Source: Erysipelotrichia bacterium
GTDB taxonomy: Bacteria > Bacillota_I > Bacilli_A > Erysipelotrichales > Erysipelotrichaceae
Length of the DNA: 64,000 nt
Direction of reading: 5' to 3'
NCBI GenBank assembly: GCA_030525245.1
Contig: JAUNFB010000003.1
Span: forward strand, 8,424 to 72,423
Within the stretch, counting starts at the first letter, position 1, and every line of letters starts with the position of its first letter. Under the pieces are notes generated by a model that was not told the origin of the DNA, did not search any database, and saw only the letters and a list, made by a program, of their open reading frames with translations. Below, piece by piece: positions 3,325-57,136 of this stretch. The translations under genes and the position numbers were made by a program.

Positions 3325-3381
3325 TAAATGAAGACTGTATTCCGAATGAATGCAGTCTTTTTCGAAAGAAAGTTGTATAAG

Positions 3382-5410: not shown

Positions 5411-5420
5411 ATAATCTCCT

Positions 5421-6185: not shown

Positions 6186-6223
6186 ATATGTGTACCTCAC
6201 TATCTATTTTAACATAATTACAT

Positions 6224-6985: not shown

Positions 6986-6999
6986 ATCGTCCTCCTGAT

Positions 7000-17000: not shown

Positions 17001-19461
17001 TTTAGGAATATTGGCTCATGTTGATGCCGGGAAAACAACACTTAATGAGTGTTGCCTTTATCATGGGGGAGTCATTCGCAAAATCGGTAGGGTGGATAAT
17101 CGAAATTCTTATTTTGACAGTAATCCTTTGGAAAAAAACAGAGGAATTACAATATTTACAAAAACAGCCGGTTTTACTTGGCATGGCAGTAATATTACCT
17201 TGGTGGACACACCGGGGCATAAAGATTTTGTCGGTGAAATGGAAAGAACTTTACAGGTGCTAGATGAAATTGTGTTGGTTATCAGCGGTTTAGATGGGGT
17301 ACAATCACAAAGTGAAATAATATTTAAGTTGTCCGAGCAGTATAATTTACCGCTATTTGTTTTTATCAATAAGATGGATTTAACCAATTTTACTCAGCAA
17401 CAACTTTTAGCTGATTTGAATAACAAATTGAAAGGACATTTCATTCCTTTTAATGATTTTGATACGGAAGCGGTAGCTTTAAGCGATGAAAAACTTTTGG
17501 AAGAATATTTAAATACAAAGGCATTATCTGTTCCGTCAGTTGCTCAAGCGATAAAAGAGCGGAGGATTTTTCCGGTATATTTCGGCAGTGCTCTAAAGGA
17601 TAAGGGGATTGTGGAATTACTGAACGGCATTGAAAAATTCAGCGCAGAGAAGAAGTATCCGCAACAGTTCGGTTTACGGATTTTTAAGGTTGCTTACGAG
17701 GATAATACGCGTTGGTGCTATGGAAAAGTTACCGGTGGGACACTGGCCGCTAAACAGAAATTGACCGAAGATGAGAAAGTTGACCAATTGTTTATCCCTT
17801 CTTCCGATAAATTTATTCCGGTAAACAGAGTAGAAGCCGGGCAGATCGTTGCGATAAAGGGATTGAAGGTATTGAGTGCCGGAAGCGGTGTAGGTATCGA
17901 GGAAAATGAGAACTTTTCCCGTATTAAAGCTTATATGCAGTATAGTGTAGAAACATCGGGAAATGTTGATCAAAAAGAATTATTGAAGCAGTTAGAAATG
18001 TTGCGTCAGGAAGATCCGTCAATTGAAATTATTTATCAACCGCAATTGAAACAATATTGTTTGTTTTTGATGGGAGAAATTCAAATTGAAGTCATTGAGG
18101 CTTTGATTAAACAGCGTAGCGGCATTGATATTCGTTTGGTTTGTCCAAAGGTAGTATATAAAGAGACTTTAACGGAAGGCATCATCGGATATGGTCATTT
18201 TGAACCGCTTAGGCATTATGCCGAAGTGCATGTATTGTTGGAACCGTTAGAAAGAAATAGTGGTATTGAGATTGTCAATGGTTTGAATAACGATGAGCTG
18301 AGCCAAGGATGGCAAACTGCGATTATGAACAGTCTGCAACAAAAAAAATTTAAGGGTGTATTGACCGGCAGTGAAATTACAGATATGAGAATAACAGTAA
18401 TTCGGGCAAAAGGAAGTTTGAAGCATACCGAAAGCGGTGATTTCCGGCAAGCGGTTTATCGGGCAATCAGGAATGGTTTGAAAAGGGGCAAAAGCATTCT
18501 TTTAGAGCCTTATTATGAATTTATGATCAGGGTTAAAAGAGAATATGTCAGTAAGGTTCTTTTTGATTTGGAAATGATGAAGGCACAAGTTCAATTGAGT
18601 CAACAGTTCGATGACACCATAATTACAGGTAAAGCCCCGGTAAGATTAATGAATGAATATATTAATTCATTTTCTTCCCAATGTTCCGGCACCGGTAAGA
18701 TTGATTATAAATTGAGCGGTTATGAGCAATGTTGTGACAGTGAAGAAATTATTAAGGAAATAAATTATGACAGTGAAGCGGATTTAGATTGTCCGACCGG
18801 TTCGGTTTTTTGCTCTCATGGCAGTGGTTTTTATGTTCCTTATGATTATGTGGCGGATTATATCCATATCAAAGAAGACAATTATCGTATTTCATCGGAA
18901 ATAACGGAAAGAAACCATACAGTCAGTGATTCGGAGTTAAAGAAAGTATTTGCGGATATAAACGGCAGAAATCGTAAAGATAAAAAAATGACAGAGAAAA
19001 AGGTGTATAAAGAATCTTATACACCTAAGAAAGTAGTAATTAAACCGAAATTATTAATAGTTGACGGCTATAATATTATTTATAATTATGAAAAGACTAA
19101 GGAATTGATGCGAGACAGTTTGGATAGTGCTCGTGATGTTTTGATTAATGATGTAGCCTCTTATACCGGTTATCTTGGCTATAAGACTATTATTGTTTTT
19201 GATGCTTATAAGAGGGAAGAAAATACCGGCAAGAGCTTTGTGAATGGCAGTGTAACGGTGGTTTATACCAAACAGGGACAAAGTGCAGATTCATATATTG
19301 AAAAGTTGGTTCACGATCATATCGACGACTATCGTATCACTGTTGCTACTTCCGATAGAGCTGTGCAGGATATGGTTCTCGGTTGCGGTGCCATCCGAAT
19401 GAGCGCTCGGGAATTGCAGTTGAATTTAGAATATATGCATAACCAGGCCGACAGTAAGTAA
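16987..19461 (+). CDS. Tet(M)/EF-G-type ribosomal GTPase fused to a C-terminal YacP/Rae1-type NYN ribonuclease domain
   Basis: N-terminus GILAHVDAGKTTL, RGITI, DTPGH, NKMD. C-terminus (nt 19042..19461) LLIVDGYNIIY, ARDVLI, IIVFDAY, SADSYIEKL, VATSD, GAIRMSAREL. It is one uninterrupted ORF. Confidence 0.85.
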   Translation: MRQINLGILAHVDAGKTTLNECCLYHGGVIRKIGRVDNRNSYFDSNPLEKNRGITIFTKTAGFTWHGSNITLVDTPGHKDFVGEMERTLQVLDEIVLVISGLDGVQSQSEIIFKLSEQYNLPLFVFINKMDLTNFTQQQLLADLNNKLKGHFIPFNDFDTEAVALSDEKLLEEYLNTKALSVPSVAQAIKERRIFPVYFGSALKDKGIVELLNGIEKFSAEKKYPQQFGLRIFKVAYEDNTRWCYGKVTGGTLAAKQKLTEDEKVDQLFIPSSDKFIPVNRVEAGQIVAIKGLKVLSAGSGVGIEENENFSRIKAYMQYSVETSGNVDQKELLKQLEMLRQEDPSIEIIYQPQLKQYCLFLMGEIQIEVIEALIKQRSGIDIRLVCPKVVYKETLTEGIIGYGHFEPLRHYAEVHVLLEPLERNSGIEIVNGLNNDELSQGWQTAIMNSLQQKKFKGVLTGSEITDMRITVIRAKGSLKHTESGDFRQAVYRAIRNGLKRGKSILLEPYYEFMIRVKREYVSKVLFDLEMMKAQVQLSQQFDDTIITGKAPVRLMNEYINSFSSQCSGTGKIDYKLSGYEQCCDSEEIIKEINYDSEADLDCPTGSVFCSHGSGFYVPYDYVADYIHIKEDNYRISSEITERNHTVSDSELKKVFADINGRNRKDKKMTEKKVYKESYTPKKVVIKPKLLIVDGYNIIYNYEKTKELMRDSLDSARDVLINDVASYTGYLGYKTIIVFDAYKREENTGKSFVNGSVTVVYTKQGQSADSYIEKLVHDHIDDYRITVATSDRAVQDMVLGCGAIRMSARELQLNLEYMHNQADSK

Positions 19462-20877: not shown

Positions 20878-21435
20878 ATGAGAAAAAATATAAAGCAAAC
20901 TGAAGGAATATTTCCAATGCCTGTTTTAATGATTGCTACATATAACGAGGATAACAGTGTCGATGTGATGAATGCCGCTTGGGGCACAATGTTTGAAAGG
21001 AATCAGGTGGTTTTGAATTTAACAGAAACACATAAAACAGTAAAAAATATCAAGGAAAGAAAAGCATTTACTGTTTCAATAGCAAATAGTAAACATGTCA
21101 CGGAAGCTGATTATTTTGGCGTAGCATCCGGAAACAATACGGCGAATAAATTTGAAAAAAGCAAATTAACCGCAACAAAATCGGAAATAATTGATGCACC
21201 GATCATAAATGACTTTCCGATTTGTATGGAATGCGAATTTATAAAATTCACAGATGCCGGAGTTGTTGGCAAAATAGTTAATATAAGTGTAGATGAAAAT
21301 GTAATGAATGGAGAAAAAGTTGATATTGAAAAAGTATCAGCAATAGCATTTGACCCGTATACTCATGGATATTACAAGGTATCTGAAAGAGTAGGAGAAG
21401 CATTCCATGATGGATTTAAGATAAAAAATATTTAG
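20878..21435 (+). CDS. Flavin reductase-like (FMN-binding split-barrel) protein
   Basis: PMPVLMIATYNEDNSVDVMNAAWG is a flavoredoxin-type N-terminus. Paralogue of 35936..36484. Confidence 0.75.
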   Translation: MRKNIKQTEGIFPMPVLMIATYNEDNSVDVMNAAWGTMFERNQVVLNLTETHKTVKNIKERKAFTVSIANSKHVTEADYFGVASGNNTANKFEKSKLTATKSEIIDAPIINDFPICMECEFIKFTDAGVVGKIVNISVDENVMNGEKVDIEKVSAIAFDPYTHGYYKVSERVGEAFHDGFKIKNI

Positions 21436-25819: not shown

Positions 25820-25949
25820 AATGCTTGCCCTCCTTGCATCATTTACTATATTATACAAATATTTAATTGGTTAGCGCAACAATCTGCCTGTAAGCGTTAT
25901 ATAAATTGTAGTTATAGACAAATAAAAGTGATTCATCTATAATAATTTA

Positions 25950-26040
25950 CGGACAGGGGTGCCGAAAGGCTGAGATAGACCCTTAGACCTGATCCGGTTA
26001 GTACCGGCGTAGGAAGATCTAAGTTGGGATACCTGTAGAA
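25950..26040 (+). promoter_or_regulatory. TPP (THI-box) riboswitch
   Basis: GGGGTGCC..GGCTGAGA..ACCCTT.GACCTGATCCGGTTAGTACCGGCGTAGGAA matches the conserved TPP aptamer core. It lies directly upstream of thiT. Confidence 0.85.
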
Positions 26041-26053
26041 AGGTGTTTTTTTT

Positions 26054-26563
26054 ATGAAAAGAAATGTTAAAGATTTAGTTTATGTTGCATTGTATGCTGC
26101 CCTATTTGTCGCTTTAGACTATGTTACCAATGTTTTGAATTTGTTCAGAATGCCGGATGGAGGAAGTTTATCTTTCGCAACAGTCGCTTTGTTATTGGCA
26201 AGCTACCATTTAGGAGTGAAGAAGGGCTTGGCTGTTTGCGCTCTTTCGGTTGTTTTGATGTTTATAATCGGTTCAATTAAATTTTATGGTATTGTCAGTT
26301 TATTGTTGGATTACATTGTTGCTTATTGCGCTTACGGTTTGGCAGGTGCGTTTAAAAATTATAAATGGTTTTATCCGGGAATTGTGATTACCAGTTTAAT
26401 TCGCTTGGCAAGTTCTACTTTAGCCGGAATGTTGGTTTGGGAAACTCCTTTTTGGGGTTCATTAAGTTATAATGCTTCTTATATCATTCCGACAATGATT
26501 GTTGATTTAATTTTTGTACCTTTGTTGTATAATATTCTTAAACCGACATTTGAAAAGAAGTAA
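26054..26563 (+). CDS. thiT: Thiamine ECF-transporter S component
   Basis: 169-aa protein with 6 TM helices behind a TPP riboswitch. The ThiT-like N-terminus is LVYVALYAALFVALDY. Confidence 0.8.
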   Translation: MKRNVKDLVYVALYAALFVALDYVTNVLNLFRMPDGGSLSFATVALLLASYHLGVKKGLAVCALSVVLMFIIGSIKFYGIVSLLLDYIVAYCAYGLAGAFKNYKWFYPGIVITSLIRLASSTLAGMLVWETPFWGSLSYNASYIIPTMIVDLIFVPLLYNILKPTFEKK

Positions 26564-35821: not shown

Positions 35822-35935
35822 AATAAATAACGCACCTCTTTTGTCATTTTAGCACATTTATTAGCTATTTAACAATAAAGAGTGTATTGCTTGCTCGCTC
35901 AGAAAGTGTGGTAAAATAGAAACGGAGGAATGATT

Positions 35936-36484
35936 ATGCGTAAAAATTTTGCCGGTAAACCGTATTTATATCCCATGCCTGTTTTGATAGTAGCTACATA
36001 TGATGAAGATGGTAACCCTGATGCTATGAATGCTGCTTGGGGAATGATCACAGACTTTAATGAAATATGTATCAGTATGTCAGAACACCAAACAACAGAG
36101 AATTTACGGTTGCGTAAGGCTTTTACCGTCAGCATTGGAACAGAGGAAACAGTTGTTTCTTGCGATTATGTCGGTCTTGTTTCGGCTAAAAAAGAAAAAG
36201 ACAAGTTTTTTAAAGCCGGATTTGAGATTATTAAGAGTGAATATGTTGATGCACCTTTAATTGCTCAATTGCCGATGGCTTTGGAATGTAAGGTGAAAAG
36301 TTTTGAAAACGGCATTTTGATCGGGGAAATAGTTAATGTCAATGCCGAAGAAAGAATATTAACCGATGGTAAGATTGACCCGGAAAAATTAAAACCGATA
36401 AGTTATGATCCGGTAAACAATCGTTACTATTCTTTGAGTGAAAAAGTCGGAGAGGCCTTCAAGTCGGGATTGAAAATTAAATAA
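35936..36484 (+). CDS. Flavin reductase-like (FMN-binding split-barrel) protein, paralogue of 20878..21435
   Basis: MRKNFAGKPYLYPMPVLIVATYDEDGNPDAMNAAWG. The ATG at 35936 lies 7 nt after GGAGG. Confidence 0.75.
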   Translation: MRKNFAGKPYLYPMPVLIVATYDEDGNPDAMNAAWGMITDFNEICISMSEHQTTENLRLRKAFTVSIGTEETVVSCDYVGLVSAKKEKDKFFKAGFEIIKSEYVDAPLIAQLPMALECKVKSFENGILIGEIVNVNAEERILTDGKIDPEKLKPISYDPVNNRYYSLSEKVGEAFKSGLKIK

Positions 36485-45390: not shown

Positions 45391-45418
45391 TTGACAATCA
45401 AAAAAATATTAGTAGAAT
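45391..45418 (+). promoter_or_regulatory. Candidate sigma-A promoter of the lipoprotein-apbE-rnf operon
   Basis: TTGACA (45391-45396), 16 nt, TAGAAT (45413-45418). Confidence 0.55.
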
Positions 45419-45480
45419 AAGTAATGGTATCTTTAAAAGTACCGGCAAAATTTAATTTTATTCTAAGAAAGGGAAAAGTC

Positions 45481-46530
45481 ATGAAAAAGTTATTTACATT
45501 GTTATTAGTAGTTTGCATGATGCTTTCTTTTACAGGATGCCAAAAGGAATCTGATAAAGAAGCTGAATACAAATTAGGTATGGGCGTTGTAACATCTTTG
45601 GAATCAAGCAAAGACGGACAAGCTCAAGTTGATGCTACAGTTGCTGCTGTTGTTGTTGACGCAGAAGGCAAGATTGTTGCATGTAAGATTGATGTTGCTC
45701 AAAATAAAGTTCCTACAACTGATGGTGTTATTGATTTAACACAAGAATTCAAAACTAAGATGGAATTGGGCGATGATTACAACATGGTAAAATACAGCGA
45801 AGCTACTAAAGAGTGGTATGAACAAGCTAACAACTTCGCTAATTATTGTGTAGGTAAGACTGCTGAAGAAGTTAAAAATACTGAAACAAAATCAAGAGAT
45901 GACGGATTACATGAAGGCTATATCGTTGCCGCAGATCCTGAATTATTTGCTCAATGCTCTATGCAAATCACTGACTTTATCGAAGCAGTAGTTAAGGCTT
46001 GCAATGATGAACAGGCTTCTTCATTCAAAACTGCTGGTGAATTTAAGTTAGGTGTTGCTGCTAATTCTGAAATCAATGAAGGCAATACAAAAGACGCTAC
46101 TGAAGAAGAAGACGGCGTTGTTGCTATTTACTCTGAATTTGCTGCTACAGTAGTTGATGCTGACGGCAAGATTTTAGCTGCAGTTATTGATGAAATTCAA
46201 CCTAAGGTTCACTTTGATGTTGACGGTGCTATTACTGAAAAAGAATTCAAAGCAACTAAGAGAGAATTAAAAGAAGACTACAACATGGTTAAATACAGTG
46301 AGGCTACTAAAGAATGGTATGAACAAGCTAAGAACTTTGCTGATTACTGTGTAGGTAAGACTGCTGATGAAGTATTGGCAATTGAAACAAAGGTTAGAGC
46401 TGATGGATTACATGATGGCTATGTTGTTGCTGCTGATGAAACATTATTTGCTTCTTGCTCAATCCAAATTACAGGTATGATGGCTGTTGTAGCTGAAGCA
46501 GCTAACTATGCTGTTAAACCTCTTCATTAA
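45481..46530 (+). CDS. Lipoprotein built from two tandem ~165-aa homologous domains
   Basis: MKKLFTLLLVVCMMLSFTGC lipobox. An internal duplication includes a near-identical block DYNMVKYSEATKEWYEQA.NFA.YCVGKTA.EV. Confidence 0.7.
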   Translation: MKKLFTLLLVVCMMLSFTGCQKESDKEAEYKLGMGVVTSLESSKDGQAQVDATVAAVVVDAEGKIVACKIDVAQNKVPTTDGVIDLTQEFKTKMELGDDYNMVKYSEATKEWYEQANNFANYCVGKTAEEVKNTETKSRDDGLHEGYIVAADPELFAQCSMQITDFIEAVVKACNDEQASSFKTAGEFKLGVAANSEINEGNTKDATEEEDGVVAIYSEFAATVVDADGKILAAVIDEIQPKVHFDVDGAITEKEFKATKRELKEDYNMVKYSEATKEWYEQAKNFADYCVGKTADEVLAIETKVRADGLHDGYVVAADETLFASCSIQITGMMAVVAEAANYAVKPLH

Positions 46531-46566
46531 TTTTAATTAAATAAGAGCTGAATAGGAGATTGTGTT

Positions 46567-47628
46567 GTGAATAAGATTATGATTTTCCTGAAAAGGTATT
46601 TGTGCGTATTGTTAATCGGATGCTTGGTTTTGGCAGGCTGTCAGAAAGAAACAAAACGTGATAAACCGATTGGGAAAGTCAGCTATGCTTATTTCGATAC
46701 AGTCTCCTATATTTATGATTATGCCAACGACACTGATGAAGAATTTGATAAATTCTCTTCCGAAGTCTTTGGCATTTTAGACTATTATCACCAATTGTTT
46801 GATATTTACAATTACTATGAGAATGTTAATAATCTTTATGTTATCAATTCTAAGGCTGGTATTGAACCGGTAAAGGTTGATAGAGAGCTTATTGATTTCT
46901 TGCTTTATTGTAAAGAGTTATATAATTTGACTGCCGGTAAAATGAATGTGATGATGGGGGCTGTTTTGTCAATTTGGCACGACCATAGGCAAACAGCAAT
47001 GGATAATCCTTCGTTGGCTACTGTTCCCGATATGGAACAATTACAGCAAGCGGCTCAACACATTTCAATAGACTCTTTGGTTATTGATGAAGCTGCCGGT
47101 ACTGTTTATATTGCGGACTGTCTTGCCCGTATTGATGTCGGAGCAATCGGCAAAGGCTATGCGACGGAAAAAGCGGCACAATATTTAAAAGAAAACAAGA
47201 AAGACGGTTATGTATTAAACATTGGCGGTAATATAAGAATTATAGGCAATAAACCGGATGGCAGTAAATGGACAACAGGAATCAAAAACCCTAATGATCC
47301 GGATGAAAATTTTCCGATAAAAATATCCATAGCGAATACATCTTGTGTAACATCGGGAATTTATGAAAGATATTATACTGTTAATAAAGTACGCTATCAT
47401 CATATTATAGATGAAGATACCCTGATGCCGGCAAATTATTTTTCATCAGTTTCTGTCATAACCGAAAACAGTGCTTTGGCTGATGCTTTGTCAACTGCTT
47501 TGTTTTGCATGAGCAAAGAAGACGGAGAGAAGGTTATCGCCAAGATCGGTAATGTTGATGTTATATGGATATATGCCGACGGTACGGTTGAGTATACCGA
47601 AAATGTAAAAAATTTTATAGTTTATTGA
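46567..47628 (+). CDS. apbE: ApbE-family FAD:protein FMN transferase (lipoprotein)
   Basis: Lipobox VLAGC and DVGAIGKGYATEKA. ApbE length. Confidence 0.85.
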   Translation: MNKIMIFLKRYLCVLLIGCLVLAGCQKETKRDKPIGKVSYAYFDTVSYIYDYANDTDEEFDKFSSEVFGILDYYHQLFDIYNYYENVNNLYVINSKAGIEPVKVDRELIDFLLYCKELYNLTAGKMNVMMGAVLSIWHDHRQTAMDNPSLATVPDMEQLQQAAQHISIDSLVIDEAAGTVYIADCLARIDVGAIGKGYATEKAAQYLKENKKDGYVLNIGGNIRIIGNKPDGSKWTTGIKNPNDPDENFPIKISIANTSCVTSGIYERYYTVNKVRYHHIIDEDTLMPANYFSSVSVITENSALADALSTALFCMSKEDGEKVIAKIGNVDVIWIYADGTVEYTENVKNFIVY

Positions 47629-47650
47629 TAGATTTAGGGAGGACTAATTA

Positions 47651-48970
47651 ATGTCAATTAGAAAAAATGTTTCTAAGTTAAAATTGCCTCACAACAAGCA
47701 TACGGCTGAAATGCATTCTACCGTAGCTCTTCCACCAAAGGAAGTATGGCTGCCGATGAGTATGCATTCCGGAAAAGATGCTGTTCCTGTTGTTGAGGTA
47801 GGAGACTATGTGCGTGTAGGGCAATTGATTGCTAGAGAAGAGGGCAACATTTCATCACCTGTGCATGCGACAGTTTCCGGAACGGTCAGTGCTATTGAAC
47901 CGATTAAGTCAATGGGCAAAGAAGTATTGGCAATTAAGATTGTCAGCGATGGCAAGATGGAGAAAGACCCAAATTTGAAAGCACCGGAAGTAAATGATGT
48001 TGACCAATTTTTACAGGCTGTTCGTGACAGCGGTATAGTCGGTTTGGGTGGCGCTGCTTTCCCTACTTGGGCAAAGTTAGCTGCATGTAAGAAGAGTAAG
48101 ATTCATACTTTCTTGATCAATGGTGCGGAATGTGAACCTTATTTAACCAGTGATACCAGAACAATGGTTGAAGACGGTGAATATATCGCTAAAGGTATTG
48201 AATACTTGAGAAAGTATGTTGGTTCTGAGAAGTTTGTTATCGGTATTGAAAAAAATAAGCAGGAAGCCATCAAATTGTTAGAAGAACGTTTCCAAAACGA
48301 TAACACGGTAAAAGTAGAAGAGTTGGACAGTATTTACCCACAAGGTGCGAAACAAGTCCTTTTATATAATGTTACCGGAATGGTTCAAAAACCGGGAACC
48401 AGACTTGCCGATTTGGGAGTATTGATTATAAATGTTACTTCTTTGGCTAAGTTAGCAAAATATATGGAAGACGGTATGCCGTTGGTTGACAGATGCGTAA
48501 CTGTAGACGGTTCGGCTGTTAAAGAGCCAAACAACTTCGTTGTTCCTATCGGAACTCCGATCAGTTATTTGTTTGAACTTGCCGGCGGTTTCAAAGAGGA
48601 ACCAGGAAAAGTTATTATCGGCGGTCCGATGATGGGACATGCTGTAGAAGATTTAAATGAACCGGTTGTTAAAGCAACAGGCGGTGTTTTGGCATTTAAT
48701 GTTAAAGAGGCAAAGGTTTATGAGCCGACGGCTTGCATTCATTGCGGACGCTGTGTTGATAATTGCCCGTTGTCTTTAAATCCGACAGAATATGCCAGAG
48801 CAATGGAAATGAGTGATGATCAAGAAAAATTAGCTCTGTTGAAAAAAGAACAAGTAACATTGTGTATGCAATGCGGATGTTGCTCTTATGTATGTCCTGC
48901 TCATCGTCCATTGGTTCAAACCAATGTTGAGGCCATTGCTTTTGTTAAAAAGAACAGAGCTCCGAGATAG
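47651..48970 (+). CDS. rnfC: Rnf complex subunit C
   Basis: GLGGAAFPT, INGAECEPYLTSD and two ferredoxin motifs, CIHCGRCVDNCP and CMQCGCCSYVCP. Confidence 0.9.
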   Translation: MSIRKNVSKLKLPHNKHTAEMHSTVALPPKEVWLPMSMHSGKDAVPVVEVGDYVRVGQLIAREEGNISSPVHATVSGTVSAIEPIKSMGKEVLAIKIVSDGKMEKDPNLKAPEVNDVDQFLQAVRDSGIVGLGGAAFPTWAKLAACKKSKIHTFLINGAECEPYLTSDTRTMVEDGEYIAKGIEYLRKYVGSEKFVIGIEKNKQEAIKLLEERFQNDNTVKVEELDSIYPQGAKQVLLYNVTGMVQKPGTRLADLGVLIINVTSLAKLAKYMEDGMPLVDRCVTVDGSAVKEPNNFVVPIGTPISYLFELAGGFKEEPGKVIIGGPMMGHAVEDLNEPVVKATGGVLAFNVKEAKVYEPTACIHCGRCVDNCPLSLNPTEYARAMEMSDDQEKLALLKKEQVTLCMQCGCCSYVCPAHRPLVQTNVEAIAFVKKNRAPR

Positions 48971-48988
48971 AAAGGATGAAACAGAAAT

Positions 48989-49924
48989 ATGTCTAAATTA
49001 ACTGTATCTGCTGCTCCGCATATTCATGATGGTGCCAGCAGTAAAAATATCATGCTTGACGTAGTTATTGCTTTATTGCCTGTTTCGGTTGCCGCTGTTG
49101 TGATTTTCGGAATGAAGGCTTTAGCAATCATCTTGACTTGTATTATCAGCAGTGTATTGTCTGAATATTTATTTAACAGTATTACTAAACAAAAACAGAC
49201 AATCGGTGATTTCAGTGCTGTTGTTACAGGTCTGCTATTGGCTTTGAATTTATCTACCAATGTTGCTTTGTGGCAATGCGTAGTTGGTTCGGTATTTGCG
49301 ATTGTTGTCGTTAAATGTTTCTTTGGCGGTTTGGGTAAAAACTTTGCTAATCCGGCAATCACCGCTCGTGTATTTATGCTTTTGGCGTTTTCATCGGTAG
49401 CCGGTGGAGCAAATCCGGTTATCGGTGCCGAATTGACCTCTTCAGCAACACCATTGGAGTTGATTAAAAACGGTCAAGAATTGCCTTCAATGATGAATAT
49501 GCTTTTAGGTGTTCACGGCGGAGCAATCGGTGAAACTTGCATTATTGCTTTAGTTGTCGGATATATCTATTTGGTTGTCAGAAAAGTCATCAAATGGTAT
49601 GTGCCTTTCAGCTTTATCGCTACTGTATTTGTTTTAAGTTTTGTAAGCAAGTTTGACTTGTCTTATGCTTTATATGAGATTTTATCAGGCGGTTTATTTA
49701 TCGGAGCAATCTTTATGGCTACCGACTATGTAACTACACCGATAACCAATAAGGGCAAAGTAGTATTTGCGATTGGTTGTGGTTTGATAACTTTCGCTGT
49801 TCGCGTGTTCTTCTCATATCCGGAAGGCGTATCGTTCTCAATTTTATGTATGAACTTATTAACTCCTTATATCGAAGAATTAACGCACAAACATCCGTTA
49901 GGAGGTGTGGAAAATGTCAAATAA
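48989..49924 (+). CDS. rnfD: Rnf complex subunit D
   Basis: SAAPHIH N-terminus, polytopic, with the flavinylation-type motif TSSATPLE. Confidence 0.9.
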   Translation: MSKLTVSAAPHIHDGASSKNIMLDVVIALLPVSVAAVVIFGMKALAIILTCIISSVLSEYLFNSITKQKQTIGDFSAVVTGLLLALNLSTNVALWQCVVGSVFAIVVVKCFFGGLGKNFANPAITARVFMLLAFSSVAGGANPVIGAELTSSATPLELIKNGQELPSMMNMLLGVHGGAIGETCIIALVVGYIYLVVRKVIKWYVPFSFIATVFVLSFVSKFDLSYALYEILSGGLFIGAIFMATDYVTTPITNKGKVVFAIGCGLITFAVRVFFSYPEGVSFSILCMNLLTPYIEELTHKHPLGGVENVK

Positions 49925-51167
49925 ATTAAAAGTTTCCGCAATTTTGGTAGTTACGATTGCTATTCTGTTTGCCAGCAATTTAATTACCAAACCATTAATT
50001 GAAAAAAATAATGCTTCTGCAAAATTTGAACCGTTGCTGGAGGTTATGAGCGATGCTAAAGACTTTGAAGTACTTTATGATGTAAATGATAAAGAAAACA
50101 GTCAATTAACTGATGTTGCCGATACTGTTGTCGGTGTATATAAGGAAACTTCCGGATTGGGTTATGTTGTGCTGTTGTCAACAACTCAAGGATATACGCA
50201 TGAACCTATTAATTTCACCGTTGCATTCAGTTCTGAAGGAATTATCACCAATATTGCTTTGACGAATTATCCGGAATCAAAAGATTTCGGAAAGAATACA
50301 TATCCTCAAACTTATATCGGCCAGGATTCAACTCTTGCCGGTGTAAGCATTGTTGCCGGAGTTACTTTCTCATCAAGCGCATTTAAGAATGCTACATTGG
50401 ATGCTTTTAATGTATTAACAGCTAACAATTTGGTTGAAGCCGGTAAGATGAGTGATGATCAAGCACTTACACAATTGTTGGTTACAGTCTTTACTTCTAT
50501 GGCTAATCCGCAAGGTGTTGCTCAATATGAAGAAAGCGAAATAAGTGAAGGTACATTGTTTAAAGCCTTTAAAGCATTAAATGATGGTGGATATGCATTC
50601 TTGGCAAAAGAGGATGATACAACGACAATGGCGTTGGTTAATAATGACGGATGCGTTAAAGTTGTTGATATCGAGGGCAATGATGTTACCGAAGCCCACA
50701 GTCAAGTTGTAGCCGATGCTTTGAGTTATGTTAATGATAAGCTTGCCGGAGCAGCAAAGAAAGAAGTTAAGAAATTAAGTAAACTTGCCGATAATGCTGA
50801 ATTAACTGAAATAGTTATGAACGGTGTTTATAATTCGGTAGTAAAGGCTTATTCGACTTCTGCCGGAGATTACGGATTTATTGTTAAGACATATGGTTAC
50901 AGCAATCAAGTAATGACTTCATATTATTTAATAGATGCTAGCGGAAATATTAAAGCGATGACTGTTGATGAAATTATTTTACAAAAAGAATATTTTGACA
51001 GTTACACATTGGATGAAGATTCTTATAAGAGCGGATTTGTTGGACAGAACAGTTCTACTTATACTTCTGATGTCGCTTTGATTTCCGGAGCTACAATGAG
51101 TACGAATGCTATCGATATGGCAACAAAAGATGCCTTGGCAGCATTTGCGATTATTAAAGGAGAATAG
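49914..51167 (+). CDS. rnfG: RnfG-like subunit, double length (two FMN_bind-like modules)
   Basis: TM anchor. Module 1 ends ..VAGVTFSSSAF and module 2 ends ..ISGATMSTNAI. The ATG at 49914 lies 8 nt after GGAGG. Confidence 0.8.
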   Translation: MSNKLKVSAILVVTIAILFASNLITKPLIEKNNASAKFEPLLEVMSDAKDFEVLYDVNDKENSQLTDVADTVVGVYKETSGLGYVVLLSTTQGYTHEPINFTVAFSSEGIITNIALTNYPESKDFGKNTYPQTYIGQDSTLAGVSIVAGVTFSSSAFKNATLDAFNVLTANNLVEAGKMSDDQALTQLLVTVFTSMANPQGVAQYEESEISEGTLFKAFKALNDGGYAFLAKEDDTTTMALVNNDGCVKVVDIEGNDVTEAHSQVVADALSYVNDKLAGAAKKEVKKLSKLADNAELTEIVMNGVYNSVVKAYSTSAGDYGFIVKTYGYSNQVMTSYYLIDASGNIKAMTVDEIILQKEYFDSYTLDEDSYKSGFVGQNSSTYTSDVALISGATMSTNAIDMATKDALAAFAIIKGE

Positions 51168-51169
51168 TT

Positions 51170-51814
51170 ATGGATAGTAAATTAGAAAAATCAATAATGA
51201 ATAATCCTGTATTTATCCTGTTTTTAGCCACAGCAGTAGTAGTCGGATCAACAGCTACTGTAAAAGGCGCATTGACAATGTCAATAAGTGTCTTGGCAGT
51301 ATTAGTTTTATCTGCATTGTTGTTGACATTATTAAATAAGGTGATAACCGATGACATCAGATTCATTTCCACGGTTATTATTGTTGCCGGAACAGCATCG
51401 TTGGTACAAATGTTAATGAATGCTTTCTTGCCTGCAGGATATAAAATGGTTAGTTTATATTTAGCTGTCTTGGCAGTTGACTTATCTGTTTTCGCTAATT
51501 GTAAGGATGTTAAAAACGATTCGACAGCTGTTGCTTTGAAGAAGAGTTTTAAAACCGGATTGTACTATGCTGTTGTTATCTTAGTATTGGCATTATTTAG
51601 AGAAGCATTCGGTATGGGCAGTATTTATGGACATGCTTTACCTTGGTTGAGCGAAAATACTATTGCGGTTTTATCGACTGCTCCGGGCGGATATATGCTG
51701 TTGGCGTTTGTGATGGCTTTCTGCAATAAAGGCGAAAAGTCGACAGAAAAATTATCAACAGTATTAACTGATGAATGTACATGTAAATGTGCATGTGAAA
51801 AAGAAGGAGAATAA
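51170..51814 (+). CDS. rnfE: RnfE-like subunit (divergent, Cys-rich C-terminal tail)
   Basis: Collinear by eye with RnfE/NqrD (NNP....GSTAT.., SLVQMLMNAF, APGGYMLLAF). The tail is TDECTCKCACEKEGE. Confidence 0.75.
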   Translation: MDSKLEKSIMNNPVFILFLATAVVVGSTATVKGALTMSISVLAVLVLSALLLTLLNKVITDDIRFISTVIIVAGTASLVQMLMNAFLPAGYKMVSLYLAVLAVDLSVFANCKDVKNDSTAVALKKSFKTGLYYAVVILVLALFREAFGMGSIYGHALPWLSENTIAVLSTAPGGYMLLAFVMAFCNKGEKSTEKLSTVLTDECTCKCACEKEGE

Positions 51815-51816
51815 CT

Positions 51817-52350
51817 ATGAAAGAATTATTTACTCTTTTAATCGGTTCGGCTTTAGTAAATAATGTAGTGCTGACCAAAGCATGTGGTTTAACTAATGCA
51901 ATTGACAGTTCAAACAACAAAAAAATCTTGAATGACGGCATTTATACCGGAATTGTAATGCTGTTATCGGCAGTTATTTGCTGGGCTTTACAATTATATG
52001 TTATAGATAAACTTTCTATCGGTTATTTACAGACATTGATATATGTTTTGATTAATGTAGCTGTTGCTTATCTGTTTAAGGGATTGTTAAAGAAAAATTG
52101 TGTCGAATTTATGTTGGCAGCATTAAACAGTGCAGTATTATTGGTTTGTTTGAATAATGTAAGTTACACTTTTGGACAGATGGTGTTTGCTACTGTCGGC
52201 AGTGCGTTAGGCTTATTAGTCGCAATGTATCTTTATGCCGGTGCTGTTCATAAAATCAATAACAATCATATTTTGAAGTCATTTAGAGGATTGCCTATTC
52301 AAATCTTGGCTATGGCAATTGTTACATTAGCTGTATTTGCTTTTAAATAA
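51817..52350 (+). CDS. rnfA: RnfA-like subunit (divergent)
   Basis: Collinear by eye with RnfA/NqrE (ALVNNVVLTK.., ..LNSAVLLV.., FRGLPIQILAMAI). Confidence 0.75.
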   Translation: MKELFTLLIGSALVNNVVLTKACGLTNAIDSSNNKKILNDGIYTGIVMLLSAVICWALQLYVIDKLSIGYLQTLIYVLINVAVAYLFKGLLKKNCVEFMLAALNSAVLLVCLNNVSYTFGQMVFATVGSALGLLVAMYLYAGAVHKINNNHILKSFRGLPIQILAMAIVTLAVFAFK

Positions 52351-52706
52351 TGTTTAAGAAAAAAGCTGATTTTATTCTGATAATAACTTTGATTTTACTG
52401 GCTTTAGGCAGTTATTTGATATGCACTATACCTAATGGTGAACCTGATAAGGTAGTCGTAAGGGTTGATGGTGAAATAACCGATGTCTTCCTTTTGGAAG
52501 AAGACGGTACATACTCATTGAGTAACGGAACTAATATATTGGTTATTGAAGACGGTAAAGCTTGGTTAGAAGATGCGGATTGTCCCGATAAGTTGTGTGT
52601 TAAACAGGGAAAAATAAGTAAGGTAAATCAATGTATTACTTGCTTACCAAATAAGTTGACAGTTACGATTGAGGGAAAAAACAGTGATGTTGATTTGATT
52701 AATTAA
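52350..52706 (+). CDS. NusG-domain-II-like small membrane-anchored protein
   Basis: N-terminal TM helix followed by a beta-rich domain with CPDKLC...C.TCLP. The start overlaps the rnfA stop (TAATG). Confidence 0.6.
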   Translation: MFKKKADFILIITLILLALGSYLICTIPNGEPDKVVVRVDGEITDVFLLEEDGTYSLSNGTNILVIEDGKAWLEDADCPDKLCVKQGKISKVNQCITCLPNKLTVTIEGKNSDVDLIN

Positions 52707-52728
52707 ATTTGAAAGGAAGGTTTTGACT

Positions 52729-53214
52729 ATGAAAAATAAGAACTTTGCCACATTATCTTTGCTGATTGCTTTGGCAATGATCTTATCTTTTGTGGAAAGT
52801 CAAATTCCTTCCTTTTTTCCTATTCCGGGAATCAAAATGGGTTTGGCCAATATAGCCGTCGTATTTGCTTTATATAAATTATCCATAAAAGATGCCATAA
52901 TTGTTTCTGTTACCAGAGTCATTATTGTTTCGTTTTTATTCGGTACAAGCGTAACCTTAATTTATTCGATTAGCGGTGCCGTTTTGAGTATGATTGTGAT
53001 GGCTTTGATGCAGAAAAGCGAACGTTTTTCTTTAGTATCGGTAAGTATAGCCGGAGGGGTTACGCATAATATAGCTCAAGTGATCGTAGCCTGTATACTT
53101 TTGAAGAGTGCGGTTATTCGCTATTATTTGCCTTTTTTGATAATTAGCGGAATGTTGACCGGAGTAGTGATCGGTTTGATCAGTGCCAAATTAATTGAAA
53201 GAATAAAAAAATAA
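52729..53214 (+). CDS. Gx transporter family (Hpre_diP_synt_I-like) membrane protein
   Basis: FVESQIPSFFPIPGIKMGLANIAV.. is the characteristic N-terminal motif. 5 TM helices. Confidence 0.7.
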   Translation: MKNKNFATLSLLIALAMILSFVESQIPSFFPIPGIKMGLANIAVVFALYKLSIKDAIIVSVTRVIIVSFLFGTSVTLIYSISGAVLSMIVMALMQKSERFSLVSVSIAGGVTHNIAQVIVACILLKSAVIRYYLPFLIISGMLTGVVIGLISAKLIERIKK

Positions 53215-53229
53215 TAAATCGGAGTCGAT

Positions 53230-54309
53230 ATGTCAATTATAAAGATGAAAAAGATGACCGTTCAATGTCCCGAGGTCATCGAAAGAATAAAAGATATAAA
53301 GGGAGTCTATACGCAAAAAGGTGTTGAAAACACTGTTTTTTTTGTAGCTAAGTTGCAGAAACAACTGACAGATCTATTGGATAAAGAGAATTGTCAATAT
53401 ACAATAACCGATATAGAAGAAGTTGATCATCCCACAGTTATGTTAAATAATTGTCAGTTCATTCGACCTTTTGGTTCACTTTTAACAAATCATGCTTTAC
53501 CTTTGTACGGTGATTTGGATCCGACAGGCTTTTATGCGATTTGTTTCTGTATTTTGTTCGGAGTAATGTTCGGAGATATCGGGCAAGGATTCATATTAAT
53601 CTTGATCGGTTTAATCTTTCGTAAAAAGGATAATTTTGCGGTGTTCAGCAGAGTAGGTATATTTTCGATGATTTTTGGTTGGCTTTACGGTTCGATATTC
53701 GGCAATGAAGAAATCATCGGCGAATGGATGCAAGAACATAGATTAGCCTATTGGCGTTTCGGTTTGTTGGAAAGAAAGAACACGGAAATATTATTATTGG
53801 TTGTTGCTGCAATCGGAATAGCGATGATTATGGCTGCGGTTGTAATTAATATTATTGATAAGGCTCATCATCATAAACAGAAAGAAATCTTAACCGCTAA
53901 TAATTGTTTACCGGCATTGATGTTTTATATGATGTTATTGCTTTTGAGCGGACAGGTTTTAGGTAAGGCAAAGGGGAAATTCACTTTAGTTTTAGCGTTT
54001 TTATTGGCTTTGGCTAATGCTGCCTTATTGTTGAAACAAGGAAAGTGGAAATATTTAACCGGTTCGATAATAAAATATTTCAGTGCCATCATGGCCTTTT
54101 TGCAAGTTGGCTGTTTTGCTTTGGCGCATGCCTTTTTGATGTATATTGTTTATTATATTGCGGGTCTGATTCCTGATATTTCCGTTATTATAATAATCGC
54201 AGGAAATGCTATTGTGATGGCGATTGAGGCAACAGAGGTATGGCATCAATGCAGTCATTTGATTTTGTCTACTTTACACGGTTTCATTACCGATAAAGAG
54301 GAACACTAA
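53230..54309 (+). CDS. Orphan, half-size V-type ATPase subunit-I/a-like membrane protein
   Basis: IRPFGSLLTNHALPLYGDLDPTGFYAICFCILFGVMFGDIGQGF matches the hallmark subunit-I block. Only 359 aa, and no other V-ATPase genes are nearby. Confidence 0.55.
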   Translation: MSIIKMKKMTVQCPEVIERIKDIKGVYTQKGVENTVFFVAKLQKQLTDLLDKENCQYTITDIEEVDHPTVMLNNCQFIRPFGSLLTNHALPLYGDLDPTGFYAICFCILFGVMFGDIGQGFILILIGLIFRKKDNFAVFSRVGIFSMIFGWLYGSIFGNEEIIGEWMQEHRLAYWRFGLLERKNTEILLLVVAAIGIAMIMAAVVINIIDKAHHHKQKEILTANNCLPALMFYMMLLLLSGQVLGKAKGKFTLVLAFLLALANAALLLKQGKWKYLTGSIIKYFSAIMAFLQVGCFALAHAFLMYIVYYIAGLIPDISVIIIIAGNAIVMAIEATEVWHQCSHLILSTLHGFITDKEEH

Positions 54310-54420: not shown

Positions 54421-55323
54421 ATGTTGTTGGACATGTACAAGATAGTTGAAGTTGAACATTTGTCTGAAAAGAACTGGTTGATGAAAATCGAAGCGCCTTT
54501 TATTACACGCAGTTGTCAACCGGGTCAATTTTTAATTGTCAAAACTGGTGAATTGGGAGAAAGAATTCCGTTGACAATTTGTGATTATGACAGAGAAAAA
54601 GGATTGGTAACAATCGTGTTCCAGACAGTAGGAGCATCTACAACTAAAATGAGCGAATTAAAAGCCGGTGATAGTTTTACGGATGTTGTCGGACCATTAG
54701 GTAAACCGTCAGAATTCGTTCATGAAGATTTGGAAGAATTAAAGAAGAAGAGTTATCTGTTTGTTTGCGGCGGTGTCGGAATTGCACCTGTTTATCCGCA
54801 GGTTAAGTGGCTTTCTGAACATGGCGTAAAAGCTGATGTCATTATGGCAGCAAGAAGCAAAGATTTGATTTTCTATGAAAAAGAAATGCGTTCAGTTGCC
54901 GACAATGTTTATATCACTACCGATGACGGTTCATATGGTATGAAAGGTGTCGGTACCGATATGGTTAAACATTTAGTAAATGAAGAAGGCAAGCATTATG
55001 ATCAATGTGTTGCAATCGGACCAATCATTATGATGAAGTTTACTTCTTTATGCACTAAAGAATTAGGTATTCCGACAATCGTATCAATGAATCCGATTAT
55101 GATTGATGGTACAGGTATGTGTGGGGCTTGCCGTTTAATTGTTGACGGTCAGGTTAAGTTTGCTTGTGTTGACGGTCCTGAATTTGATGGACATAAAGTT
55201 GATTACGATTTAGCAATGAAGCGTGCCAGATTGTATAAAGATGAAGAAACAAGAGCAATGTTAAAACTTGAAGAAGGCGAAACTCATCACGGTGGATGCG
55301 GTTTCTGTTCAAGCGAAAAGTAG
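54421..55323 (+). CDS. nfnA: NfnA-type (PyrK-like) FAD/[2Fe-2S] subunit of ferredoxin:NADP oxidoreductase
   Basis: FNR-like fold (RIPLTICD, VCGGVGIAP) and the C-terminal cluster motif GTGMCGACRL..C. The start is ambiguous (54421 to 54433). Confidence 0.8.
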   Translation: MLLDMYKIVEVEHLSEKNWLMKIEAPFITRSCQPGQFLIVKTGELGERIPLTICDYDREKGLVTIVFQTVGASTTKMSELKAGDSFTDVVGPLGKPSEFVHEDLEELKKKSYLFVCGGVGIAPVYPQVKWLSEHGVKADVIMAARSKDLIFYEKEMRSVADNVYITTDDGSYGMKGVGTDMVKHLVNEEGKHYDQCVAIGPIIMMKFTSLCTKELGIPTIVSMNPIMIDGTGMCGACRLIVDGQVKFACVDGPEFDGHKVDYDLAMKRARLYKDEETRAMLKLEEGETHHGGCGFCSSEK

Positions 55324-55334
55324 GAGGCTGTATT

Positions 55335-56717
55335 ATGGATGTAACTAAAAAAGTACCGGTAAGAGAACAAGATCCTAAAGTAAGAGCAACTAATTTTGAA
55401 GAAGTTTGTTTGGGATATAATGAAGAGGAAGCAACTGCTGAAGCAAGCCGTTGTTTAAATTGTCGTAATCCTTTATGTCAAAAGGGTTGTCCAGTATCAA
55501 TTAATATTCCTGCTTTTATTCATGAATTGAAGAGCGGAAATGTTCAGGCTGCTGCAGATATTATTGCTCAGCAATCGGCATTACCGGCTATTTGCGGACG
55601 TGTTTGTCCTCAAGAAACTCAATGTGAAGGTAAATGTATCAGAGGTATCAAAGGAGAATCTGTTTCTATCGGTAAGTTAGAAAGATATGTTGCTGATTGG
55701 TGTAGAGAACATGGTTATCAAGCTGATAAAGCCGGAACTCCTAACGGTAAGAAAGTTGCTGTTATCGGTTCAGGTCCTGCCGGATTAACATGTGCCGGAG
55801 ACTTGGCTAAGATGGGTTATGATGTAACTATCTTTGAAGCATTCCACGAAGCAGGCGGTGTATTGGTATATGGTATCCCTGAATTCCGTTTACCTAAAGA
55901 TACAGTTGTTAAGTCAACAATTGAAAATGTTAAAAAATTAGGTGTTAAATTGGATACAAATGTTATTGTCGGCCGTTCAATCACCATCGATGAATTGTTA
56001 AACGAACAAGGCTTTGATGCCGTATTCATCGGAACAGGTGCCGGATTACCTAAGTTCATGAACATTCCTGGCGAAATCGCTAACGGAGTATTCTCGGCAA
56101 ATGAATTCTTAACCAGAAATAACTTGATGAAAGCATTCAGAGAAGATGCCGATACGCCTATTAAGTGCGGTAAGAAAGTTGTTGTTGTCGGCGGCGGTAA
56201 CGTAGCAATGGATGCTGCCAGAACTGCATTACGTTTGGGTGCCGAAGTACATGTAGTATATCGTCGTGGTGAGGAAGAATTACCTGCTCGTAAAGAAGAG
56301 GTACATCATGCTAAAGAAGAAGGAATTATTTTCGATTTATTACAAAACCCTGTTGAAATCTTAGCAGATGAAAACGACTGGGTTAAGGGTATCAAAGTCA
56401 TTAAGATGGAATTGGGTGAACCTGATGCTTCAGGCAGAAGAAGACCGGTAGAAATTCCTGGTTCAGAATATGTAATTGACTGCGATACAGTTATTATGTC
56501 GTTAGGAACTTCTCCTAACCCATTAATTTCTTCGACAACTGCCGGATTAGAAACCAACAAACATGGTTGTATCATCGCTAAAGAAGAAGACGGTGAAACT
56601 ACTAAGGTCGGTGTATATGCCGGTGGTGATGCCGTTACAGGTGCAGCAACTGTTATCTTGGCAATGGGTGCCGGAAAGGCAGCTGCCAAGGGTATTGACG
56701 AATACTTAAATAAATAA
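55335..56717 (+). CDS. nfnB: NfnB-type (GltD-like) subunit
   Basis: CLNCRNPLCQKGCP, CGRVCPQETQCEGKC, VAVIGSGPAGL and VVVVGGGNVAMD. The ATG at 55335 lies after GGAGG. Confidence 0.85.
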   Translation: MDVTKKVPVREQDPKVRATNFEEVCLGYNEEEATAEASRCLNCRNPLCQKGCPVSINIPAFIHELKSGNVQAAADIIAQQSALPAICGRVCPQETQCEGKCIRGIKGESVSIGKLERYVADWCREHGYQADKAGTPNGKKVAVIGSGPAGLTCAGDLAKMGYDVTIFEAFHEAGGVLVYGIPEFRLPKDTVVKSTIENVKKLGVKLDTNVIVGRSITIDELLNEQGFDAVFIGTGAGLPKFMNIPGEIANGVFSANEFLTRNNLMKAFREDADTPIKCGKKVVVVGGGNVAMDAARTALRLGAEVHVVYRRGEEELPARKEEVHHAKEEGIIFDLLQNPVEILADENDWVKGIKVIKMELGEPDASGRRRPVEIPGSEYVIDCDTVIMSLGTSPNPLISSTTAGLETNKHGCIIAKEEDGETTKVGVYAGGDAVTGAATVILAMGAGKAAAKGIDEYLNK

Positions 56718-57126: not shown

Positions 57127-57136
57127 TTATAACAGA

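Follow-up and report, generated by a model that had tools for sequence, protein, structure and literature searches.

A 64,000-nucleotide stretch of contig JAUNFB010000003.1 from an Erysipelotrichia bacterium (GCA_030525245.1; hereafter the window) carries a ten-gene operon derived from that of the ferredoxin- and NAD+-linked Rnf complex, with no rnfB gene nearby. The ten genes (g1 to g10, Table 1) include intact rnfC and rnfD, and divergent forms of rnfG, rnfE and rnfA whose products are referred to below as RnfG', RnfE' and RnfA'. A first-pass annotation made from the sequence alone had described this operon and the promoter ahead of it, and our listing of the open reading frames (ORFs) over 44-58 kb recovered all ten, consecutive on the forward strand from 45481 to 54309, where it had placed them (coordinates throughout are those of the whole window). 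Based on the gene content and on the residues that the family has lost, we lean towards the interpretation that the operon encodes a truncated, one-way Rnf derivative that would function as an NADH-driven transmembrane electron exporter. Related loci were collected by a profile scan with an RnfG alignment over one genome per GTDB species, which gave 145 relatives; the best 80 were analysed, the ten window proteins were mapped onto them, and individual loci are referred to by L labels (for example L008).

Two of the Rnf subunits are, by profile score and motif content, canonical members of their families. RnfC scored 412 bits against TIGR01945 (cut-off 246) and also matched PF01512, PF13375 and the Fer4 motifs, and its motifs SGIVGLGGAAFP and two copies of CxxCxxCxxxCP were kept in 74 relatives. 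Against the nqrA models the same protein reached 39-49 bits (cut-offs 321-505), such that it scores as RnfC. RnfD, a protein of 311 residues with PF03116 alone, scored 278 bits against TIGR01946 (cut-off 207) and is 48% identical to the solved Clostridium tetanomorphum RnfD, with its SSATPL motif aligned with TTATPL of 7zc6_D; the threonine of the ATPL motif was present in all relatives.

The absence of rnfB, which the first-pass annotation had noted, held throughout the 64 kb. Two CxxCxxCxxxC motifs in total were found in the six frames of the window, both within RnfC, and neither this motif search nor Pfam scans of the other large ORFs of the window, which are ordinary housekeeping genes, identified an RnfB. 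Likewise, no RnfB-like ORF was found within 10 kb of the operon in the 80 related loci. Candidates near L049 and near L021, L022 and L025 were considered and rejected: the ORFs that were scanned (L049 and L021) had Fer4 without the RnfB FeS domain, that of L021 also had a flavodoxin domain, and those of L021, L022 and L025 were on the opposite strand.

The second feature that carries our interpretation is the loss of the intramembrane [2Fe-2S] cluster. In Rnf this cluster is held by Cys residues of RnfA and RnfE, one on each of their inner half-helices, and is the sole route from RnfB to RnfG, and a 2025 review describes the four core cofactors as strictly conserved (PMC12174285). We defined the ligand columns on solved Rnf and Nqr structures, aligning g6 to 7zc6_E, 9eri_E and 7xk3_D and g7 to 9eri_A, 7zc6_A and 8ahx_A, and verified the register by residue numbering. 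Residue-by-residue alignment placed NqrD Cys29 and Cys112 opposite Ala22 and Leu105 of g6, and A. woodii RnfA Cys25 and Cys113 opposite Thr26 and Ser105 of g7. All four ligands are therefore replaced in the window, in agreement with the first-pass annotation. Across the family, Cys occupied the two RnfE' columns in 68/81 and 0/81 members and the two RnfA' columns in 1/80 and 0/80, so that two columns were never Cys in the 80 loci, and none of the members among these loci had three or four of the ligand Cys. The canonical cluster can be coordinated by none of the family members, and the lineage of the window has also lost the last remaining ligand Cys. A relocated cluster site involving RnfE' C111 and RnfA' C23 and C111 was considered and rejected for poor conservation, as RnfE' C111 and RnfA' C23 are each found in 1-2% of the family and RnfA' C111 is Cys in 30%.

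The two subunits have also diverged strongly. RnfE' scored 84 bits against the curated rnfE model (cut-off 213) and RnfA' 73 bits against that for rnfA (cut-off 229), and their identities to the solved counterparts were 24% and 33%, respectively, versus 48% for RnfD. In normal Rnf, RnfA and RnfE are the best conserved subunits (PMC12174285), and by these measures the divergence of the subunits is inverted here. The C-terminus of g6 (51755-51814) is a Cys-rich tail, DECTCKCACEKEGE, of a kind also seen in RnfE' of L008, L035, L036, L059, L081 and others. In about half of the relatives the last 35 residues of RnfE' contain at least three Cys, often as CCCC, and others have none. The tail probably lies on the cytoplasmic side, where it might provide a metal or Fe-S site or be lipidated.

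On the outer side of the membrane the extracytoplasmic modules have been expanded, as the first-pass annotation proposed, through a double RnfG and a tandem-domain lipoprotein. RnfG' (417-420 residues) has two FMN_bind stretches by Pfam and scored 27 bits against the rnfG model (cut-off 102). Its two conserved Thr motifs are AGVT (T151; variants AGCT, SGCT and SGVT) and the canonical SGAT (T394), and 71 of the 81 RnfG' relatives have both. More than 258 clusters are full-length relatives of the long RnfG at 35-96% identity, and some are triple-length, for example the 646-residue protein of L006 (10001-11941). In L061, L069 and L070, RnfD and the long RnfG are a single polypeptide of 740-749 residues, which argues that the two subunits work in direct contact.

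The lipoprotein encoded by g1 is a candidate for the terminal extracytoplasmic electron carrier. No family match to it was found in Pfam or NCBIfam, and its AlphaFold2 (AF2) model (mean predicted local distance difference test score, pLDDT, 92.9) has two equal repeats. A profile of the g1 family matched PDB 2kzx (E 1.2e-4), and the matched part of that structure is itself an FMN_bind domain with the motif DAISGATI. In this alignment ASCS of g1 lies under SGAT, where distant members have AGCT or TSVT, such that Ser/Thr is conserved at the flavinylation position of the g1 family and the Cys is not (Val in distant members). Comparison of g1 with the long RnfG by hhalign (profile-profile) gave a weak match (probability 20%), and Foldseek found no significant match with either the whole of g1 or one domain. 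It may be that g1 is a distant relative of flavin-binding domains, a relationship that we regard as unproven. An IscU-like Fe-S scaffold fold, to which Foldseek assigned a probability of 0.9-0.96 (TM-score 0.37-0.47, root-mean-square deviation 5-9 Å, E >0.02), was rejected because the Foldseek result lacked significance and because distant members have Val in place of the conserved Cys. The g1 domain family has approximately 1,570 representatives at 50% identity and no Pfam model. The best-scoring members shown have mostly 2, 4 or 6 matched repeats, with few having 1 or 3, and one occurrence of the domain is inside a protein of 1,574 residues.

The best 80 of the 145 relatives are species-level, uncultured metagenome-assembled genomes (MAGs) from the gut and rumen. 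They include members of Erysipelotrichaceae, Oscillospiraceae, Limivicinus, Vescimonas, Faecousia, Butyricicoccaceae, Acutalibacteraceae, Sphaerochaeta and other Spirochaetales. The closest relative in the one-genome-per-species set is 63% identical, and the core was kept at 35-63% identity in several orders with differing flanks. The order g1-apbE-rnfC was found in 65 of the 66 loci with enough upstream sequence, and rnfD-G'-E'-A' in every locus with room for it. After rnfA', eetA followed in 48 of 70 loci and both eetA and eetB in 36 of the 70, with neither in 22; in the mapped set, g10 occurred in L008 only. Three distant relatives that were examined (an Erysipelotrichaceae MAG, a Clostridia MAG and a Ruminococcaceae contig) had the series lipoprotein-ApbE-RnfC-RnfD-long RnfG-RnfE-RnfA-NusG_II-PF07456, and none had RnfB. 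The conserved unit is a seven-gene core, lipoprotein-apbE-rnfCDG'E'A', present in Erysipelotrichia, Oscillospirales and spirochaetes of the gut and rumen, in at least 80 species-level genomes; EetA/EetB are a frequent accessory, and g10 is variable. The extended gene order raised by the first-pass annotation recurs widely from g1 through EetA/EetB, and g10 falls outside it. No recurrent acceptor enzyme was found among the neighbouring genes in a survey that was noisy owing to antisense ORFs in GC-rich MAGs.

The genes that follow rnfA' had been described in the first-pass annotation as three unrelated membrane genes filling the slot of rnfB. That description does not suit g8 and g9, which are homologues of EetA and EetB and part of the system. 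The NusG_II domain (PF07009) is labelled EetA in the supplement to PMC9973259, and PF07456 is the Listeria EetB, an energy-coupling factor (ECF) S-like protein binding flavin adenine dinucleotide (FAD) that is needed, with FmnA and EcfA/A', for FAD to be exported to the ApbE-type transferase FmnB (PMC9973259). In the same study eetB was colocalised with eetA in 3,328 genomes, with apbE in 2,169 and with Rnf genes in 572 Clostridia genomes, and eetB is often near canonical rnfCDGEAB operons, in which rnfB is kept, as its supplement shows. Because EetA and EetB are a known FAD-export pair feeding ApbE, g8 and g9 are predicted to be a supply line for flavinylation and no replacement for RnfB. No ECF-T or ECF-A genes were found in the 64-kb window; EetB would therefore rely on a shared module encoded elsewhere. 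Four Cys of g8 (CPDKLC ... CITCLP; 52578-52652) recur in at least 90% of 54 relatives and might make up a zinc-ribbon-like or redox site, which would probably face the outside of the membrane. In nine related loci the gene after eetB is an ECF-T gene (CbiQ). The slot is otherwise variable, with an unannotated membrane protein of about 170 residues in ten spirochaete-type loci and a 152-residue protein in L004 (slot coordinates: L075, 7372-7950; L004, 13376-13834; L076, 14652-15533).

Without RnfB and the membrane cluster, the one cofactor chain left intact is that from RnfC through the RnfD flavins to RnfG. The path suggested in the first-pass annotation, from NADH through RnfC, RnfD and RnfG to the outside, is the most economical reading. 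What the sequences show is the gene content, the loss of the ligands, the motifs kept in RnfC and RnfD and the recurrence of the block; we infer the direction of flow, the loss of ion pumping, the nature of the acceptor, and the attachment of flavin to g1 and to the first domain of RnfG'. We propose that NADH would be oxidised at the cytoplasmic RnfC, in which the flavin mononucleotide (FMN) site and two [4Fe-4S] sites are kept, and that the RnfD flavins, within the membrane, would receive the electrons and pass them on to the membrane-anchored RnfG' with its two flavin-type domains outside the cell. From RnfG' they would be handed to the g1 lipoprotein and on to an extracytoplasmic acceptor, for which free flavins, metals, and secreted or cell-wall reductases are candidates. 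The half of the canonical loop that would have been deleted is that from ferredoxin through RnfB and the RnfA/E [2Fe-2S] cluster to RnfG. The lipoprotein ApbE would attach FMN outside the cell using FAD delivered by EetA/EetB, and RnfA' and RnfE' would be kept probably as a structural scaffold only. The likely benefit would be the regeneration of NAD+ in fermentative, quinone-poor gut anaerobes, as in the flavin-based extracellular electron transfer (EET) of Listeria. We favour one-way export because RnfG is duplicated or tripled, RnfD and RnfG can be fused, the lipoprotein and ApbE lead the operon, and the FAD exporter is frequent. One-way flow from NAD(P)H to the outside has been proposed earlier for two-subunit NQR/RNF-like systems (PMC8238504, PMC10979944).

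A more specific form of this proposal, which we put forward tentatively, is that the Rnf chassis has become a ferredoxin-, quinone- and cytochrome-independent NADH:extracellular-acceptor oxidoreductase with at least four covalent flavins, and that it has a wide distribution among uncultured Clostridia, Erysipelotrichia and spirochaetes of the gut and rumen. The covalent flavin chain of such an enzyme would run through RnfD and two flavins on RnfG, with perhaps two more on a lipoprotein of a new, flavinylated class.

Several points weigh against export of electrons by this operon. The block encodes no acceptor gene, every relative is an uncultured MAG, and the rnfB negatives reach as far as the 64-kb window and the 10 kb flanks of the related loci. 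A role as scaffold leaves the retention of RnfA' and RnfE' unexplained. In addition, no flavin domain is recognised in g1, which is tied to FMN_bind by one profile match and a weak hhalign result, and the AGVT motif of RnfG' and the ASCS motif of g1 differ from the published ApbE recognition motif. Lastly, 84% of the family retain one of the four ligand Cys and many RnfE' have a Cys-rich tail. Since one Cys is often kept and such tails are frequent, RnfA' and RnfE' may have a non-canonical metal site.

Some of these points would also fit a complex that is still a ferredoxin- or flavodoxin-linked Rnf, in which an RnfB encoded elsewhere, or another cytoplasmic partner such as an Fe-S centre bound by the Cys-rich tail of RnfE', supplies electrons to the membrane part and ferredoxin and NAD+ remain coupled. 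The reach of the rnfB negatives, the ligand Cys retained in 68 of the 81 members, the tails of about half of the RnfE' and the position of NfnAB, a ferredoxin-linked enzyme, next to the operon in the window and L008 are all consistent with this explanation. We nevertheless consider it unlikely. Two of the ligand positions are Cys in 0 of approximately 80 members and a third in 1/80, and the loss of these ligands removes the sole route by which electrons are known to travel between RnfB and RnfG (PMC12174285). Moreover, many RnfE' have no Cys-rich tail, and whereas rnfB is carried in cis by canonical clostridial operons, no RnfB lies within 10 kb in the 80 loci.

Another explanation is that the complex is an Nqr-like oxidoreductase of NADH and quinone, or of another membrane carrier, in which RnfD reduces the lipophilic carrier and the outside modules are accessory. 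Nqr is itself thought to be derived from an rnf operon minus rnfB (PMC4014512), and RnfD is homologous to NqrB, whose final flavins pass electrons to ubiquinone (PMC12174285). We regard this as quite unlikely, however, because the operon has no NqrF and its RnfC retains its cofactors, unlike NqrA, and because in Nqr the electrons pass through the NqrD/E cluster, which is missing here, and NqrC. It would also leave unexplained the duplication of RnfG, the conserved lipoprotein with ApbE and the FAD exporter, and the RnfD-RnfG fusions.

Flow in the inward direction, from an extracellular donor such as reduced flavins or a partner organism through g1, RnfG and RnfD to NAD+ at RnfC, has in its favour that Rnf chemistry is reversible in principle (PMC12174285) and that the anatomy of the complex sets no direction. 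It is very unlikely in our view, as NAD+ reduction by flavin-level donors would lack an evident driving force without an ion-coupling site, and the characterised Gram-positive flavinylated systems export electrons (PMC9973259, PMC8238504). To a decaying or non-functional rnf remnant, which might account for RnfG, RnfE and RnfA scoring far under the family cut-offs and for g10 being a degenerate V-ATPase fragment, we give almost no credence, since the ORFs are intact, the seven-gene core has been kept across several orders, in at least 80 species-level genomes and at 35-63% identity, and invariant motifs persist in every subunit.

The proposed exporter can be set beside several known systems. 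It shares with canonical Rnf (RnfABCDGE; 7ZC6, 8AHX, 9ERI) a genuine RnfC and RnfD and recognisable RnfG, RnfE and RnfA, and with the canonical clostridial operons the order rnfC-D-G-E-A and the company of ApbE and EetA/EetB. It differs from canonical Rnf in having neither RnfB nor the [2Fe-2S] ligands, and in having a double RnfG and a conserved extra lipoprotein. With RnfB and the ligands missing, the semicircular path from ferredoxin to NAD+, as now understood, would therefore be impossible. The two-subunit NQR/RNF-like systems (PMC8238504, PMC10979944), found mainly in Actinobacteria and the candidate phyla radiation (CPR), are also partial, ApbE-associated Rnf/Nqr systems that keep the RnfD-RnfG branch. 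In those systems, however, an RnfD-like domain is fused to a C-terminal, NqrF-type NAD-binding domain (PF00175) and there is no RnfC and no RnfA/E, whereas the operon described here has RnfC, cluster-less RnfA/E, a double RnfG and g1, and its RnfD has no PF00175.

The Listeria flavin-based EET system (Ndh2, DmkA/B, EetA, EetB, FmnA, FmnB and PplA) resembles the operon in its EetA, EetB and ApbE-type transferase, in its two-domain surface lipoprotein, and in carrying cytosolic NADH electrons to the outside in a Gram-positive organism. There the membrane step is performed by Ndh2 and demethylmenaquinone, whereas here RnfC, RnfD and RnfG would act without a quinone; scans of the ten genes and of flanking genes found neither Ndh2 nor DmkA/B. 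The Listeria lipoprotein PplA has two FMN_bind domains with the flavinylation motif, whereas g1 has no Pfam FMN_bind match, only the remote profile link to 2kzx. Na+-NQR is likewise derived from rnf, has lost rnfB and has kept the C-D-G-E-A order, and an rnfB-less rnfCDGEA intermediate was postulated in its origin (Reyes-Prieto et al. 2014, PMC4014512). In Nqr, NqrF was recruited, RnfC was emptied of its cofactors to become NqrA, and the NqrD/E cluster was kept; here the opposite is seen, with RnfC kept and the cluster lost. An extracytoplasmic output module for EET is also found in Methanosarcina acetivorans, where Rnf operates with the multihaem cytochrome MmcA (PMC6703419; PMC12174285), although the output in that case goes through a c-type cytochrome and the complex still has RnfB and its full pump.

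In the literature searched, no account of an Rnf lacking RnfB or the cluster was found. Méheust et al. made RnfB the criterion for RNF clusters (PMC8238504), and a family without RnfB would therefore have escaped their classification. The family is an extant rnfB-less rnfCDGEA operon that took a route other than that to Nqr. Because it dropped the cluster and RnfB, kept RnfC and RnfD, and multiplied the outside flavin-type modules, it suggests that the RnfC-RnfD-RnfG branch can act as a stand-alone transmembrane wire. If the operon is indeed an NADH-driven exporter, it would represent an unrecognised EET route in the gut microbiome and a present-day equivalent of the rnfB-less rnfCDGEA stage postulated on the way to Na+-NQR. 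Many gut and rumen bacteria that live strictly by fermentation, with neither quinones nor cytochromes, could then dump NADH electrons outside, which would have a bearing on gut redox ecology and on the reach of EET. The family also offers a natural "deletion mutant" that would separate the parts of Rnf needed for electron transfer from those needed for ion pumping, and in g1 a large uncharacterised lipoprotein domain family with a testable function.

Table 1. Predicted features of the Rnf-derived operon and the adjoining nfn genes (window coordinates).
Feature	Coordinates	Strand	Match or supporting evidence
Predicted sigma-70-type promoter, TTGACA-16-TAGAAT	45391..45418	+	11/12 positions matched
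g1, lipoprotein, two repeats of an uncharacterised domain, possibly distantly FMN_bind-like	45481..46530	+	Lipobox LSFTGC
g2, ApbE flavin transferase, predicted lipoprotein (lipobox LAGC)	46567..47628	+	PF02424, 214 bits
g3, RnfC, NADH/FMN site and two [4Fe-4S] motifs	47651..48970	+	TIGR01945
g4, RnfD, membrane subunit, predicted flavinylated Thr in SSATPL	48989..49924	+	TIGR01946
g5, double-length RnfG, N-terminal membrane anchor and two FMN_bind domains	49914..51167	+	
g6, RnfE-like, [2Fe-2S] Cys replaced by Ala22 and Leu105, Cys-rich C-terminal tail	51170..51814	+	
g7, RnfA-like, [2Fe-2S] Cys replaced by Thr26 and Ser105	51817..52350	+	
g8, EetA homologue, NusG_II domain, single N-terminal transmembrane segment	52350..52706	+	PF07009, 103 bits
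g9, EetB homologue, ECF-S-like FAD-binding subunit	52723..53214	+	PF07456, 146 bits; weak ECF_trnsprt match
g10, half-size V-ATPase subunit-I-like membrane protein, degenerate	53230..54309	+	V_ATPase_I, C-terminal membrane half only
NfnA-like and NfnB-like genes	54421..56717	+	PF10418; PF14691 and Pyr_redox_2

From g1 to g10 the successive intergenic gaps are 36, 22, 18, overlap, 2, 2, overlap, 16 and 15 nt. The predicted promoter is the best among 62 promoter-like sites in the 13 kb scanned (44.5-57.5 kb) and sits in the 141-nt leader between comFC and g1, where the chance expectation for such a site is about 0.005. Across the window, sites with at least 11 of 12 positions matched numbered 3 per strand versus 2.4 expected from shuffles, and so showed no enrichment. 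The true start of g1 is most likely the ATG at 45481, which begins MKKLF..., leads into the lipobox and has the ribosome-binding site AAGGGA ahead of it, rather than the ATG at 45424, which coincides with the predicted transcription start. The start of g5 is probably the ATG at 49914. No terminator was predicted within the operon or from g10 to nfnA, so that nfnAB may be co-transcribed with the operon; the sole strong predicted terminator is at 57136, 3' of a cupin gene. An Rfam scan of the whole window found no riboswitch on the operon.

The last gene of the operon, g10, belongs to a family of about 14 clusters of half-size proteins, for which the nearest full-length subunit I has at most approximately 33% identity over partial alignments. 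The arginine of the seventh transmembrane segment (TM7) is essential in subunit I of V/A-type ATPases. All of the half-size members of the g10 family have Gln or Met in place of this residue (in SFxRxGAFALAH) and lack the RLEYYEFF motif. A role for g10 as a functional V-ATPase stator was rejected, as it has no match to the N-terminal domain, no TM7 Arg and no RLEYYEFF, and Pfam scans found no V-ATPase genes in the window. The first-pass annotation had included g10 in the extended block; however, it stands after eetB only in the window, L008 and L088 (with differing flanks in L088), and homologues are found without rnf genes in L089 and L090, in the latter after an Opp transporter. On this distribution g10 is best regarded as a facultative neighbour outside the conserved block. 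Locus L089 (8584-13290) has the same comFA-comFC ... nfnAB-cupin-secA-prfB slot as the window, occupied by four genes without Pfam matches, one of them the g10 homologue; this would fit either loss of the nine genes from L089 or their insertion beside a g10 that was already present.

The proximity of NfnAB had been taken in the first-pass annotation to keep the operon in a pyridine-nucleotide and ferredoxin context, a link that proved weak. NfnAB lies directly downstream only in the window and in L008, the closest relative of the window. In L077, L081 and L082 it is 1.9 kb upstream, with pyrG between, and in L061 it is 4 kb upstream on the other strand; it was not found in the other related loci with enough sequence. 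As a conserved partner of the operon NfnAB was therefore rejected, the association being a loose one.

Elsewhere in the window, the cluster of two ParB paralogues flanking ParA, followed by GidB/RsmG (4532-7686), suggests a position near the chromosomal origin. An unusual 824-residue fusion (16987-19461) joins an EF-G-like GTPase (GTP_EFTU, EFG_III, IV and C) to a C-terminal YacP-type NYN nuclease. Directly upstream of an EF-G gene is a gene for a 223-residue ankyrin-repeat protein (11055-11726); ankyrin-repeat proteins are uncommon in bacteria. A thiamine pyrophosphate (TPP) riboswitch (25945-26032) precedes the gene for a ThiT/YuaJ-type ECF-S thiamine transporter (26054-26563), and a second ECF-S gene is at 3328-3912. 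Two paralogous proteins of approximately 185 residues with a Flavin_Reduct domain are encoded at 20878-21435 and 35930-36484.

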